From assembly GCA_964487475.1 (NCBI GenBank), contig CAZAPM010000007.1:1-41698 (forward strand): DNA of 41,698 bases, in the 5' to 3' direction. Position numbers: made by a program. The first letter of the stretch is position 1. The number at the start of each line of letters is the position of its first letter. The DNA is from an uncultured Planctomycetales bacterium. Lineage in GTDB: Bacteria > Omnitrophota > Gorgyraeia > Gygaellales > Profunditerraquicolaceae. This document shows positions 21,601 to 27,600 of the stretch, one piece after another.

Positions 21601-24600
21601 CGGGTATCCGATGTGGCGAAGGTGCGCGAGGTGCGGGAAGTGCTGGTCGAACTGCAGCGCAGGCTGGGCGCCCGCGCGGATGCGGTGCTGGACGGACGGG
21701 ATATCGGAAGCCATGTGTTCCCCGATGCCGCGTACAAGTTCTATCTGGATGCGGATGTGCGGGAGCGGGCGATGCGCCGTTTCAAGGAGCTTACCGCGGC
21801 AGGGACGCAGACCAGCCTGGAGGCGGTCGAGGCGGACGTGAAGAACCGCGACCGGATCGATTCTTCCCGGGAATTCGCCCCGCTGTGCCGGGCGAAGGAC
21901 GCACAGTACGTCGATACGACGTCATTGAACATCGAACAGGTGGTGGAGGTGCTGCTGCGCCGCATCACCGATTCAAAGGACAGGAATGGATAAGAGCAGG
22001 ATCAGGAATTTCAGTATCATCGCCCATATCGATCACGGCAAGTCGACCCTGGCCGACAGGATCCTCGAGGTCACCGGCGCGGTCGATATCCGTCATCGCG
22101 GGGCCCAGCTGCTGGATGATATGGACCTGGAGAAGGAGCGGGGCATCACCATCAAGGCTTCGATGGTCAGGCTTTCCTATACTTCCCAGAAGGACGGCAA
22201 GGAGTATGTGTTCAACCTGATCGATACTCCCGGCCACGTGGATTTCACCTACGAGGTCTCCAAATCCCTGGCGGCGTGCGAAGGGGCGATCCTGGTGGTC
22301 GATGCGGGGCAGGGGATCGAGGCGCAGACCGTGGCAAATTATTATCTGGCGATGGAGAATAACCTGCACGTCATCCCGGTGATGAACAAGATAGACTTAA
22401 GCTCCGCGGATGTGGAGCGCACCAAGCATCAGATCGTCAGCGTCCTGGGGTTCAAGGAGGAAGAGATCATCATGGCTTCCGCCAAGGAGGGCCGCGGCGT
22501 CCCCGAGATCCTGGAGCGGATCATCGAGGCGATCCCGGCGCCGAGCGGGGAGGAGGGCAATCCCCTGAAGTCCCTGGTATTCGACTGCCGTTTCGACGCC
22601 TATAAGGGTGTCGTGGTGTTCGTCAGGGTGGTGGACGGCATGATCACCCCCCAGACCCCGCTGAAGATGATGCACTCGGGAAGCATCTACAAGATCGAAG
22701 AGCTGGGGGTGTTCAAGAACCTCAAGTATGAGAAGGCGGACACGCTTACCTGCGGCGAGGTCGGATATTTCACCGCCAACATCCGCGACGCCCGCGAGAT
22801 CATCATCGGCGATACGGTCACGGACAATAAGAATCCGTGTAAAGAGGCGTTCCCCGGGTATCGCACCCTGAAACCGCTGGTGTACTGCGGCATCTATCCG
22901 GTCAACCCCAGCGATTTCCCCAATTTGCGCGACGCTATGGACAAGCTCAAGCTCTCCGACGCCTCGTTCGTGTACGAGCCGGAGAACTCCCAGTCCTTCG
23001 GGATGGGGTTCCGCTGCGGGTTCCTCGGGCTGCTGCACATGGAGATCGTCCAGGAGCGGCTGGAGCGCGAGTATGACCTCAACCTGATACTCACGGTGCC
23101 GAATGTCGTCTACCGCGTGCGCGCGCGGGGAGGGGATCTGGTGGAGGTGGATACGCCTGCGAGGCTGCCTTCGGCGCAGGATATCACCGAATCGCAGGAG
23201 CCTTTTGCCAGCCTCCTGATGATCATTCCGGTGGAGTCTATCGAGCTGGTGTGCGATTTCGTCAAGGCCCGGCGCGGGGTATTCAAGTCCAGCGAATATC
23301 TTTCGGAGGACAGGGTCAAGCTTACCTTCGAGATCCCCCTCTCCGAGATCATCGTCGATTTTTATGACCGGATCAAGTCCATGACCCGGGGGTACGGTTC
23401 CCTGGATTATGAGTTCCTCGATTACCGGCCCACGAAGCTGGTGAAGATGGACATCCTTTTGAACGGCAACATCTGCGATGCGTTTTCCACGCTTCTGGTC
23501 AAGGAGAAGGCCATGACCAAGGGGCATGCGCTGGTATCAAAACTTAAAGAGCTCATTCCGCGGCAGCTTTTCGAGGTCACGATCCAGGCGGCGGTCGGCA
23601 GCCAGATCCTGGCTTCCGAGCGTATCCGTTCCGTAGGCAAAGCGGTCACCGCGAAATGTTATGGTGGCGACATCACCCGTAAGCGCAAGCTTTGGGAAGA
23701 GCAGAAAAAAGGCAAGAAGCGGCTCAAGCAGTTCGGACAGGTGGAGATACCCCAGGAAGCATTTTTGGAGGTACTTAAAATATGAGCGATGCGACGCAGC
23801 AACCGGTAAGGAAGAGCGCCCGCCAGAGACGTCTCGCGGTGATTCGGGAATGGGTGGAGTCGATCGTCGTCGCGCTGCTCCTGGCGATGGTGATACGGGC
23901 ATTCGTGGTGCAGGCGTTCAAGATCCCCACGGGATCCATGCGCATGACGCTCCAGGAAGGGGATATCATCCTGGTCAATAAGTTCCTGTATGGGGCGCTG
24001 GTGCCTTTTACCGACCTTAGGCTGCCCAAGGTGCGCGATCCCCAGCGCGGGGACGTGATCGTGTTCATCTATCCGGAAAACCCGAAGAAGGATTTTATCA
24101 AGCGGCTCATCGGCCTGCCCGGGGACGTCATCGAGATCAAGAACGGCACCATTTTCGCCAACGGCAAGCCGGTGGACCATCCGGTGCTGCGGCAGATGTA
24201 TTATTATAATCGCGGGATGTTCGGGCAGGAGGGGCAGAAGATCACGGTGCCTCCGGATTCGTATTATGTGCTGGGGGATAATTCCCGTTCCTCGCAGGAC
24301 AGCCGGTACTGGGGTTTCGTGCCGAAGAAGAACGTGCTGGGAAAAGCGTTCATCATTTACTGGCCTTTGAACCGGATACAGCTGATCCAATAAGCGTATG
24401 AACTTCGCCAATAAGATCTCCACGTTCCGGATACTGACCGTTCCTCTGTTCATCGCCACGTTGATCTATTATGTGCCGGGGAAGGAGCACCTGCGGTATT
24501 TGGCGTTGGGGATATTCATCCTGGCGGTGATCTCGGACGCGCTGGACGGCTACATCGCGCGCAAGTCGAAGATGCAGTCGGAGGCGGGGATGATCCTCGA

Positions 24601-27600
24601 TCCTTTGGGGGATAAGCTCCTGCTGATGAGCGCGTTCGTCTGCCTTTCCTTCGATAAGTTCCCGCTGCATTTCCCCCTGGGCGTGGTGCTGACCGTGATC
24701 AGCCGGGACGTGCTGATCCTTCTCGGGACGATCGTCATTTTCATCGTCAAACAGGACCTGGACATCTCGCCGACGCGGTGGGGGAAGCTGACCACCACCT
24801 TCCAGATGTCCGCGGCGATCGCCGTGCTGCTGCAGTGGACGCAGGGTGCTCCGGTGTTGTGGTGGAGCGCGGTGTTCTTTACCGTCATTTCGGGCGTGGA
24901 TTACGTGATGCGGGGGTTCAAAAAACTCTATGCTGTGGATATTCGCCGGAATACTCATTAGTTATCTGCTCGGGGCGATCCCGACGGCGTATCTTTTCGG
25001 ACGCCTGCTCAAGGGGATCGATATCCGTGCGCACGGCTCGGGGAACGTGGGCGCGACCAATGCGCTGCGCGTGCTGGGCAAGGGGCCGGGGATCGCGGTG
25101 CTGCTGCTGGACGTGCTCAAGGGCGCGGTGGCGGTGGCGGTGATCGGTCCGATGGCCTCCGCGAGGATGCCTTCTTTCCCGCAGGACGTGTTGCTGGTGG
25201 TGTGCGGGGTGGTGGCGATATGCGGTCACAACTGGACGGTATTCCTGCAGTTCAAGGGGGGCAAGGGGGTGGCGACGTCCCTGGGGGTGCTGATCGGACT
25301 GGCGTTTCGCATCCCCGGAATGCCGCTGGTGATCCTGTGCGTGGTGGCGACGTGGGGCGTGGTTTTCCTGGCCAGCCGTTTTGTTTCCCTCGGATCGATC
25401 ATTGCGGCGGCAGCCCTTCCTATATATATCGCGTTGTTCGTGCAGTCGAAAGTGATCTTAGGCGCCGGGATCCTTCTGGCCCTGTTCGTGGTATTCCGGC
25501 ATCATGCCAACATCTCCCGACTTCTTCAAGGCAAAGAACCCCGCATTCAGGGACGCTCCTAAAGGGGACGCCCCCAAAGGGGACACCCCTCTTCCTGTTT
25601 TGAGCCAATAAAAAGTTTTATTTCTCATTTCCTGAAAAAATTTCCTCATTTTCACTCCTTATTCAGTTAAATTAGGCTCAGGGGTGTCCCTTTCAGGGGC
25701 GTCCCCTTTAGGAGCGTCCCTAAAGCAAACGCTTTCGAAAAAACCTCGTTTTACTCTTGAATGCCAATGAGTTACGAGACATACTTTATCAAGCAAGACC
25801 CACCAGCCAGCAGTGAAGTGGGGCTGACGGGTTGCCGGATGATCATTAGATACGGCAACCCGTTTTTTTAAACCCTGAGGTTAAAATGCGCGATCTGGTA
25901 TTCAAAAACCTGACTTCTGTCGAAAAACGGCGCAAGGTGATTGCCAGCAGCGAAGTGCTCGATAACAACGGCATTCACAGTGTGATCAACCGCCATTTTA
26001 TGTATATGGTCAGGGAAGTGGCGTGCGGTACGGAACTCCCTAAGCCCGAACCATATGTGCATGTGATCAAGGACCGCAATACCAAGGACCAGCGCGAAAG
26101 ATTTTTTTGCAAAATAAAAGGCGGGGTGTATGTGATGCACGAGGAAAAACTTTACCTGGTGAATTACATGCATACGCTGCGCATTCAGCTCACCGCAGCG
26201 ACGATGGGGGCGCAGGGGTAGAAACAGGGGGGTACAGGATATTGGTGCCCGCACATTGAGGATATACAGCATCCGGTGGAAACGCCGGATTTTTTTTGTT
26301 GACATGCCGCGAAATCTTTTTATAATAAGAAGCGGCAATGAAAAAAATCATCCTCCCCATACTTCTTGCATCGGTTTTCGTTGCGGCCTCTTGTTCTTCT
26401 CGCGCGCTCGCGCAAAGCCAGGCAGTACAATATCTCAATGAGTTAGGGGCTACCTATTACAAGATGGGCAAGTTCGATGATGCCCTTCAGGAGTTCGAGA
26501 AGGTCCTTCTGATCGAGCCCGGCAATCCCACCGCACAGAAATACGTTTCCGCAATTTTCCGCCGCGATACCGAGATCGATATCAGCGAACGCCAGAAGGC
26601 TCCCGAAGAAATGAAGCTTTCCCGGCTTTCAAAGGTCTCGGGTACCCTCAACCGCATGGAAAAGCGCCTGCAGGCACCCGTTGATGAGGGGGTCCCGGAG
26701 GAAAAGAAATCAAAGCAGCTCGGGCCCTTCTCGGTCAAAGGGGAGATGCAGGTAAGCGCCGGCATTGACGAGCGGGATTTCATCTGGAAGCAGGCCAACG
26801 CCGATCTCAATGAAAAGAATTACCGTTTGCTCTCCGACCGGGCGTATGACCGCCGTACCAATACCTTCGACGCGCGCGTCTTCGACCGGGTCAAGGTCGA
26901 GCTGGATACGGAATACGAGCAGGGGTTCAATGCTCACAGCAATATCGTGGTCGATCCCTGGAGCTTTGTGGGTAAGGGGCCGAAGACCACCATCTCCAGC
27001 GATTTCGGGGATACGGCCGAGGTCGAGCTTAAGTACTGGTCCAATACCCGTTATCTGGTCAACGAGAAGGTCCTCAGCGACCGGTTCGGTAATTCCCTGA
27101 ATATCCCCGAAGTGAAGGTCTATAACGGAGAAGTGCAGGCGTTCACCGTCCCCGGCGCATTTACACCGAACGATACTTTCCGTATCCCCGACACCAAGAT
27201 CGATATGGAGTTCAAGCCGATCCGGGAATTCTGGGTGGATTATACCCAGCCGGGCACCAAGTTCCGGGTGTTCCCGATCGCCTATCAGGATCAGGCGTTG
27301 AGCACGAGCGATCCGCTGGCCCTTTCCAACAATCATATGTACTGGCAGCAGAGCCCCTGGCTGGACAGCTGGAGGCCGGGCAAGCTGAATTACGGAGCAA
27401 CTCCGGTGGATTTCACCAAGGGCAAGTTCGACGATTCGCTCTCTTATTTCACCCGTGACAGCGACGGCACCAGGCTCACTTCGCTGCGCGGCGCGTCCCT
27501 GGAGATGTCGCCTCTCGAGGGGGTGAATTTCGCCACGACTTTCGCCACACCGCTGACCCTGTGGCAGGATTATGATGATTTCAACAACCTTATCAGCGCA

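Follow-up and report, generated by a model that had tools for sequence, protein, structure and literature searches.

Der (EngA) is a ribosome-building enzyme that Escherichia coli needs, and members of its family (TIGR03594) combine two GTPase domains with a KH-like domain (PF14714). The window analyzed here, a 41,698-nt stretch (contig CAZAPM010000007.1 of assembly GCA_964487475.1) from an uncultured bacterium of the order Gygaellales in the phylum Omnitrophota, raises the question of how a cell might build its ribosomes without this enzyme. In most of the Der-bearing relatives compared, an intact der gene lies directly downstream of pgsA and upstream of plsY. In the window, the gene order is cmk-lepA-lepB-pgsA-plsY, and der is gone from the slot between pgsA and plsY.

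The pgsA-plsY junction and the absence of Der

The features of the locus are as follows.
21319..21993, + strand: cmk, cytidylate kinase, upstream member of the conserved block (TIGR00017, 235.8 bits; cut-off 135.55)
21986..23785, + strand: lepA, elongation factor 4, a retained ribosome-associated GTPase distinct from Der (TIGR01393, 899.5 bits)
23782..24393, + strand: lepB, signal peptidase I (TIGR02227, 181.6 bits)
24398..24961, + strand: pgsA, phosphatidylglycerophosphate synthase (TIGR00560, 100.5 bits, slightly below the cut-off of 109.1; orthologues are syntenic in relatives)
24930..25562, + strand: plsY, glycerol-3-phosphate acyltransferase (TIGR00023, 177.5 bits; cut-off 137.2)
24930..24961, + strand: 32-nt overlap of pgsA and plsY, read as a deletion scar from a comparison of start offsets
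25886..26221, + strand: orf111, a conserved 111-aa ORF of unassigned function that follows plsY and extends the synteny

Neither the window nor the rest of the genome (1.87 Mb, 94.6% complete) yields a Der member or remnant. TIGR03594 gives no match over its cut-off in this genome (best score 131.9 bits against 306.7, for MnmE), PF14714 gives none at E<=10, and a profile made from 32 Ders of the Omnitrophota type retrieves other GTPases only, with no match to the KH region. All strong GTPase matches in the genome are assigned to families other than Der. Among the 80 closest lepB loci, 72 hold both pgsA and plsY and the other eight are incomplete; the two genes overlap in all 72 (by 32 nt in 67 and by 29 nt in five), with der in none. 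The clean deletion of der described in an earlier note on this DNA is thus borne out, as is the gene order that it reported for relatives: 14 of 20 Der-bearing loci read pgsA-der-plsY, two more preserve pgsA-der, and four place der in another context. Adjacency of pgsA and plsY is not in itself proof of Der loss, because two genomes (G004 and G012) show it yet keep a relocated der elsewhere.

The start of plsY suggests how the slot was closed. Its ATG at 24930 lies 16 nt past a Gly codon (24914) that is conserved in pgsA; in 6 of 14 Der-bearing loci, der begins at this same offset. plsY starts at +16 in 11 of 26 loci of the Der-less clade that includes this genome (clade A, below) versus 1 of 22 other Der-less loci, and the junctions of different Der-less lineages are not alike. 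A start-to-start deletion therefore likely removed der in the common ancestor of a clade that spans several orders; plsY would have inherited the coupled start codon of der. That slot and start offset are shared across more than one class, which argues that der was ancestral; the base of the Der tree itself is weakly supported (0.46), with two outgroup lineages only.

The next ORF, orf111, has no match in an NCBIfam search, and its best Atlas score (0.88) is a lead only. It also follows plsY in two Der-bearing genomes (L021 and L022), so it is not a replacement for Der.

Distribution of Der and probable number of losses

The absence extends well beyond this genome. Across the phylum, Der is found in 101 of 401 genomes, against 381 for the plsY control, and among genomes at least 90% complete the counts are 89/341 and 338/341; the gene is thus missing from roughly three in four of the Omnitrophota genomes searched. 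In a panel of 80 genomes, PF14714 is present in 25/25 that bear Der and 0/55 that do not. Der is likewise absent among 34 MMR_HSR1 matches (27 of them classed) from three single-contig genomes (G143, G149 and G357), a two-contig genome (G155) and a four-contig genome (G091). Within the order, 67 of 68 genomes give no Der match, while plsY is found in 68/68. The earlier claim that Der is missing from the entire order holds with one qualification, a sub-cut-off match in G226, which is foreign and frameshifted.

Could these absences be an artefact of assembly or binning? All of the genomes are uncultured assemblies, but the slot is closed mid-contig at all 72 complete close loci, single-contig genomes lack Der, the plsY control is nearly complete, and the pattern of absence follows families. 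An artefact is refuted for clade A and for the large Der-less families. It is conceivable for isolated single genomes, such as lone absences in families f9 and f11, where der has moved and synteny cannot close the case. As a general explanation it is extremely improbable.

Clade A comprises about 27 families and about 170 genomes from several orders (SH-aLRT 100), and lacks native Der. Its two Der matches are both foreign: the copy in G260 shares 91% identity with a Der from Bacilli and clusters with Bacilli sequences, and the match in G226 nests among Ders of families f9 and f11 while the native slot stands empty. The latter match sits at a contig end next to recN. Transfer, contig contamination and chimerism are all compatible sources for these two sequences.

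The earlier note had placed the loss at the order Gygaellales. It is older than the order and likely dates to the ancestor of the multi-order clade, with many further losses likely elsewhere in Omnitrophota. Starred branches force at least six state changes among 40 genomes and a 121-genome tree yields 14-21 losses, which together suggest at least 6 and possibly 14-21 separate events. Some fall within families (f14, 5/11; f9, 13/16), and f14 holds Der-bearing and Der-less genera side by side. The gene is kept in about a quarter of genomes, including some whole families (f10, 25/25), and must therefore still be under selection there. Plain shrinkage is insufficient as an explanation, because genome size does not predict Der loss: one single-contig genome of 3.4 Mb is without Der, and a genome of 0.9 Mb has it.

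Retained assembly factors and candidate compensating changes

Besides Der, this genome lacks Era, YihA, YchF, RsgA, BipA, RimM, RNase III and RNase R, in agreement with the earlier report of missing Era, RimM, RsgA, RNase III and RNase R. The extension of Era loss to the order is correct for the genome's own family (Era in 0/7 genomes) but not outside it (3/6). Nor do Era and RNase III disappear along with Der: Era is present in 34/55 Der-less versus 13/25 Der-bearing genomes, and RNase III in 13/55 versus 8/25, so that both losses are independent of Der loss. Over-cut-off matches among five genomes tested number 0/5 for RimM, 1/5 for RsgA and 0/5 for RNase R/II; piecemeal loss is common to Era, RNase III, RimM, RsgA, RNase R and SRP. 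A proposed era scar between ybeY and recO is not supported, as three Era loci lack such neighbors. Assembly by "ObgE, HflX, RbfA and RimP alone", as earlier suggested, is too narrow a description, since RsfS, RluD, LepA, two DEAD-box helicases, PNPase, RNase E/G and a probable YbeY also remain. ObgE scores over its cut-off in 6/6 Der-less inventories and is present at four more Der-less loci. YihA is missing from six GTPase inventories, all of Der-less genomes.

Animal mitochondria are not known to carry Der either. In the human mitoribosome, GTPBP5 (Obg) and GTPBP6 (HflX) act at the peptidyl transferase center, and GTPBP6 is required for assembly of the mitochondrial large subunit (PMC7736812; bioRxiv 10.1101/2021.03.17.435767). 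Homologues of the same two proteins are the large-subunit GTPases left here, and HflX is found in 55/55 Der-less panel genomes, whereas Era, YchF, RsgA, YihA and BipA are shed. HflX could by analogy have been recruited with ObgE to finish the peptidyl transferase center, a reading we consider rather unlikely. HflX is also present in 23/25 Der-bearing genomes, and no residue diagnostic for Der loss separates 10 Der-bearing from 15 Der-less proteins. E. coli HflX did not substitute for EngA in vitro (PMC13278734), and bacterial HflX is described as having no assembly role (PMC7736812). Mitochondria moreover use GTPBP7, GTPBP10 and MTERF4-NSUN4 (bioRxiv 10.1101/2021.03.17.435767), and an assembly role for Omnitrophota HflX is putative. 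HflX as a stand-in for Der has no direct support. ObgE shows three conservative differences, which we take as noise given only four Der-bearing sequences.

An unrecognised replacement, whether a new protein, one resembling Nmd3 or a Der so diverged that it escapes detection, is suggested by the in vitro requirement for Der in E. coli (PMC13278734). Eukaryotic Nmd3 occupies a similar site, and many Omnitrophota proteins are without annotation. We nevertheless judge this unlikely. The strong GTPase matches of this genome all belong to other families, orf111 occurs in Der-bearing genomes as well, and a replacement would have had to appear, or be acquired, anew with every one of the many losses. 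A scan for Nmd3-like Cys motifs, a crude and weak test, returned one ORF that by its N-terminus is apparently RadA.

A third alternative is that a change in 23S rRNA or in a 50S protein ended the need for Der, as has been proposed for the der/uL1/H78 trio of the candidate phyla radiation (CPR). The genome's own assembly holds no usable rRNA, as noted before, and relatives were compared instead; 23S was located by a short motif in 43/80 genomes. The comparison covers 22 Der-less and 17 Der-bearing 23S sequences, leaving out the misaligned G143; positions are numbered on an E. coli copy of 2903 nt, with an error of 1-2 nt. No change is common to all Der-less lineages at any position, and H78 (35 nt) and H76-78 (104-105 nt) are full length in every sequence. 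The compensating rRNA change that the earlier note had left open is therefore not seen. uL1 is present in 57/60 regions, with the three misses at contig ends. H78, the L1 stalk and uL1 are thus intact in the Der-less genomes compared, and none offers a compensating change. In this genome bL9 is intact and uL30 was not found. Clade A does carry compensatory pair swaps of its own in and around H89, but other Der-less lineages do not share them. In part of the clade, rpmA is lost from rplU-rpmA-obgE, and the one bL27 left is a divergent form whose N-terminal tail has been replaced. Der-less G143, G035, G027 and G001, as well as clade-A G043, retain a canonical bL27; the bL27 change therefore came later than Der loss, and its timing rules it out as a compensator. 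A phylum-wide ribosome change older than all losses is compatible with the data, but we think a ribosomal explanation improbable overall.

Proposed tolerated loss and its relation to known systems

In E. coli, Der is described as a placeholder that times folding of the L1 stalk, h68-69 and h89 (bioRxiv 10.64898/2026.02.15.706057). Taken as a whole, the evidence is best explained by a loss that the cells tolerate, with assembly proceeding more slowly around ObgE and RsfS, a reading we hold with modest confidence. The data suggest that an ordinary-looking ribosome is assembled by a Der-independent route, in which ObgE, RsfS, RluD and helicases would finish the 50S subunit more slowly and with less supervision, with no dedicated replacement. 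The timing step may have ceased to be needed on a single occasion early in the history of the phylum, in small host-dependent cells, and each lineage would then have been free to drop der without a new compensating change. The missing upstream placeholder YihA could be part of this enabling state. Tolerance in slow, host-dependent cells is one option offered for the CPR (PMC12641178). Against tolerated loss, the argument partly rests on negative results, and a small or unrecognisable replacement would escape detection. E. coli reconstitutions with ObgE alone, or with five GTPases including ObgE, HflX and LepA but no EngA, gave no active ribosomes in the experiments reported (PMC13278734); the Omnitrophota ribosome or cell must therefore differ somehow.

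A bolder version is tentative and less likely. It holds that the set of large-subunit GTPases with which a canonical 50S subunit is built is the smallest described in bacteria, consisting of ObgE and an HflX turned to assembly in a mitochondria-like manner, without Der, YihA, RbgA or BipA. Because Der would have been dropped a dozen or more times in one phylum, Der-free assembly might then be a derived state that lineages reach easily, in contrast to the relic of early divergence argued for in the CPR.

The closest known parallel is the class-specific absence of der among CPR/Patescibacteria (Amikura et al. 2025, PMC12641178). As here, der is absent across a whole clade, well-assembled genomes included; obgE is retained, Era and RimM are often absent, and the cells are small and host dependent. 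By that account, Dojkabacteria likewise include the state in which der is lacking while uL1 and H78 are present. The window's genome is not patescibacterial: its nearest lepB relatives are Omnitrophota in most of 80 records, a phylum of the PVC group. The losses here are many and partly recent, within families, and are not followed by loss of uL1 or H78, whereas the CPR losses, as presented in that paper, were fixed before classes formed. YchF, BipA and RNase III, absent from this genome, are kept by most CPR (PMC12641178).

The earlier note regarded Der loss as described only for the CPR. The phylum here is indeed outside the CPR, but patchiness of TIGR03594 in Omnitrophota is already in print with Der unnamed. 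Seymour et al. 2023 (PMC10066038) set TIGR03594 aside because it was infrequent and its occurrence phylogenetically constrained, and they recorded PF02978 (SRP) in one Omnitrophota genome. The family stands there as a bare accession: "EngA" and "GTPase" do not occur in the main text, nor any of five terms in eight supplements, and these parts offer no synteny, loss count or ribosome interpretation. Our literature search, which covered few subscription papers, returned nothing on Omnitrophica and EngA, on the Omnitroph bL27 N-terminus or on Velamenicoccus ribosome GTPases. The finding is thus broader than earlier claimed and less new, with Der loss known from the CPR and the Omnitrophota pattern in print as an accession; the mechanism is a proposal only.

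For genome surveys, TIGR03594 and SRP markers lower completeness estimates in Omnitrophota. The distribution described here makes two inferences in print less secure: that the factor repertoire of the CPR goes back to early divergence, and that loss of der is linked with change in uL1 and H78. The Der-bearing and Der-less genera of family f14, with an unaltered L1 stalk, form matched natural pairs for asking why Der is dispensable.

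The pgsA-plsY junction

G000, the genome to which the window belongs (1.87 Mb in 36 contigs, completeness 94.6%), carries cmk, lepA, lepB, pgsA and plsY there in a single run, with a 32-nt overlap between pgsA and plsY.

21986-23785: lepA
24398-24961: pgsA
24930-25562: plsY, with its ATG at 24930

At 20485-21993 of the window, cmk directly follows tyrA without aroA, which is often located between them; upstream lies the aromatic cluster pheA-hisC-aroF-tyrA. Directly after plsY lies a 71-nt inverted pair made up of two 15-nt repeat clusters (25546-25724), and related, REP-like motifs occur in about 27 bins of 500 nt in G000. 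A 111-aa ORF at 25886-26221 is conserved downstream of plsY over much of the class and has no family assignment.

Among the nearest 80 lepB loci, 72 contain both pgsA and plsY, and in all 72 the two genes overlap without der. In G000, the best match to the Der model TIGR03594 reaches 131.9 bits against a cut-off of 306.7, the C-terminal KH-like domain PF14714 gives nothing at E ≤ 10, and a profile built from 32 Omnitrophota-type Ders matches only the other GTPases. These results bear out the earlier note’s claim of a clean absence of der from this slot. The nine MMR_HSR1 matches in G000 are MnmE, ObgE, HflX, HydF, FeoB, LepA and, by motif and length, IF2, an EF-G-like protein and EF-Tu. Adjacency of pgsA and plsY alone does not prove loss, as two genomes (G004 and G012) have the genes adjacent yet carry der elsewhere.

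In 6 of 14 Der-bearing loci, der starts within the pgsA tail, 16 nt past a conserved Gly codon; the plsY ATG in the window has exactly this offset from the same codon. Clade A, a multi-order clade without native Der that includes the window’s own order, Gygaellales, has plsY at +16 in 11 of 26 loci, compared to 1 of 22 other Der-less loci, with start codons extrapolated from the window’s PlsY, which biases close relatives toward +16. Because plsY in these clade A loci sits at der’s offset, the deletion in the clade likely ran from start to start, leaving plsY with the coupled start of der. Der-less lineages other than clade A display different junctions, consistent with separate deletion events.

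Distribution and history of Der

Der is matched at E ≤ 1e-45 in 101 of 401 phylum genomes (96 above the cut-off), with plsY as a control in 381; restricting the set to genomes of ≥90% completeness gives 89 and 338 of 341. PF14714, an independent domain test, is present in 25/25 Der-bearing and 0/55 Der-less genomes of a hand-picked panel. Families f17 (0/11), f15 (0/5) and, in another class, f60 (0/~66, by hand count) are wholly Der-less, and f14 is divided, with all five Der-bearing members (of 11) within one genus. In f9 and f11 (L012, L013, L033, L034), der is relocated outside the pgsA-plsY slot and retained in most members. An assembly artefact is excluded for the large Der-less groups because well-assembled genomes also lack Der: none of 34 GTPase matches is Der in five such genomes, three of them single-contig (1.6, 2.0 and 3.4 Mb), one two-contig (own order) and one four-contig (27 matches were classed; the other seven are 430-804-aa frames, IF2-sized or, once, HflX). 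As a general explanation, artefact is extremely improbable.

The only match among 68 genomes of the own order is a frameshifted der in G226, a member of the own family, at a contig end adjoining recN; its native slot is empty. This Der is ~80% identical to other Omnitrophota Ders and nests with those of f9/f11. The der stretch of this locus (L010, G226:C45:1-3076) has a GC content of 0.52 versus 0.47, and the locus is either a re-acquired, decaying copy or a chimeric join. A second genome, G260, carries a Bacilli-type Der adjoining cmk on a 7.9-kb contig. Both Ders are foreign, whether by transfer or contamination. The reported absence from Gygaellales thus holds for native Der, but it is not confined to that order, since clade A as a whole and other groups lack native Der.

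A tree of RpoB and N-terminal RpoC (126 genomes searched, 5 left out, 121 placed) puts the own order within clade A, which comprises 26 family codes plus f8, assigned by order, or ~170 of 401 genomes by a hand count extrapolated from 1-7 representatives per family. Clade A members share an RpoB gap of ~78 residues, seen as two-part profile matches; it spans model positions ~220-297 (for example, in the RpoB encoded at G000:C1:149680-153066). A quick 40-genome IQ-TREE search without bootstrap gives clade A an SH-aLRT of 100 and needs nine Der-state changes, of which the starred branches force at least six. The 121-genome tree implies 14-21 losses, several in single genomes, depending on the collapse of weak nodes and with G226 and G260 recoded as Der-absent. 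Such counts do not by themselves separate gain from loss. Since 14 of 20 loci, drawn from more than one class, carry der in the pgsA-plsY slot, and Der protein groups follow families much like RpoB (the base of the Der tree being weak), ancestral der with repeated losses is the simpler reading.

Other assembly factors and candidate compensators

Era is found in 20/33 clade A, 14/22 other Der-less and 13/25 Der-bearing genomes, and RNase III in 1/33, 12/22 and 8/25, respectively; their losses are independent of that of Der. Era had been described as gone in the order, but 3 of 6 members outside the own family keep it. The available text of an Era review (PMC10582724) names Dependentiae, Chlamydia and CPR as groups that lack Era, without mention of Omnitrophota. 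Across G000 and four well-assembled genomes, RimM and RNase R/II are absent above cut-off, as claimed, but RsgA occurs in one. A factor set of ObgE, HflX, RbfA and RimP alone is drawn too narrowly: E. coli queries show that G000 retains RbfA, RimP, RsfS, RluD, two DEAD-box helicases, PNPase, RNase E/G, bL9 and, probably, YbeY. The same single-sequence queries, weak for short or divergent proteins, did not find YihA, BipA (best match EF-G), RlmE, RlmB, RlmH, TruB, uL30, bL28, bL32, RnpA or Hfq in G000. SRP54-type GTPases (Ffh, FtsY) were found in none of five genomes (G000, G155, G143, G149 and G357; three are single-contig), with controls at 14/14; G000 does have YidC and SecY. In its available text, Seymour 2023 (PMC10066038) records PF02978 from a single Omnitrophota genome, and loss of the signal recognition particle looks phylum-wide.

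E. coli Der is described as contacting uL1, h74-78, h88, h89 and h93 and keeping h68-69 away (bioRxiv 10.64898/2026.02.15.706057, available text). G000 has no usable rRNA, as the earlier note had said, so 23S stretches from 40 relatives were aligned (one, G143, misaligned and was left out). Every sequence, whether Der-less (22) or Der-bearing (17), has an H78 of 35 nt and an H76-78 of 104-105 nt. Some substitutions are particular to clade A, several of them in H89, and no substitution is common to all Der-less lineages in this set. uL1 was found in 57 of 60 regions. A change in the ribosome itself, as compensation for Der, is rated improbable, below the other biological alternatives. Inserts of ~200-900 nt near E. 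coli positions 1916, 1930, 1950, 2261 and 2477, probably self-splicing introns, occur in Der-less and Der-bearing genomes alike (L372, L374, L381, L383, L384, L388, L395-L397, L401, L404).

In five clade A genomes, rplU-obgE lacks the canonical rpmA between them. G000, G155 and G357 carry a divergent bL27 whose N-terminal tail is replaced, and G129 gives a similarly weak partial match; this relocated gene is the sole copy found in these four genomes, and G149 and G336 gave no bL27 match.

G000:C9:34836-36122: rplU-obgE, canonical bL27 deleted
G000:C12:19249-19497: divergent bL27 (L430)

Four other Der-less genomes and clade A genome G043 keep the canonical protein; bL27 remodelling thus followed Der loss and is rejected as a compensator.

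Explanations and meaning

We lean towards tolerated loss. Early in the phylum, the timing step of Der would have ceased to be needed, leaving each lineage free to drop der with no further compensating change; ObgE, RsfS, RluD and helicases would then finish the 50S subunit more slowly. Against this, E. coli reconstitution without EngA is reported to fail even with ObgE, HflX and LepA (PMC13278734, available text), genome size does not predict der loss, and some families retain der throughout. Mitochondria-like recruitment of HflX is an unlikely alternative, though the strongest of them: HflX is present in 55/55 Der-less and 23/25 Der-bearing panel genomes, and no HflX residue is diagnostic of Der absence. 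Replacement by an unrecognised protein is rated lower, as quite doubtful.

The available text of Amikura 2025 (PMC12641178) reports that CPR lost der at the level of classes, that >99% of non-CPR genomes carry it and, from one genome, that Omnitrophota have few such factors. Our literature searches found no paper naming Der loss in Omnitrophota. The earlier note’s statement that such loss is described only for CPR is still not wholly accurate: the patchiness of Der is already visible in PMC10066038, where TIGR03594 was removed as an infrequent, phylogenetically constrained Omnitrophota marker and, in the available text, Der is unnamed. Unlike the known CPR case, the loss described here is repeated within Omnitrophota and leaves the L1 stalk unaltered. 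A near-universal, essential GTPase has really been lost, and repeatedly, outside CPR; the window preserves a precise deletion scar of this loss, and its mechanism is one that we infer.
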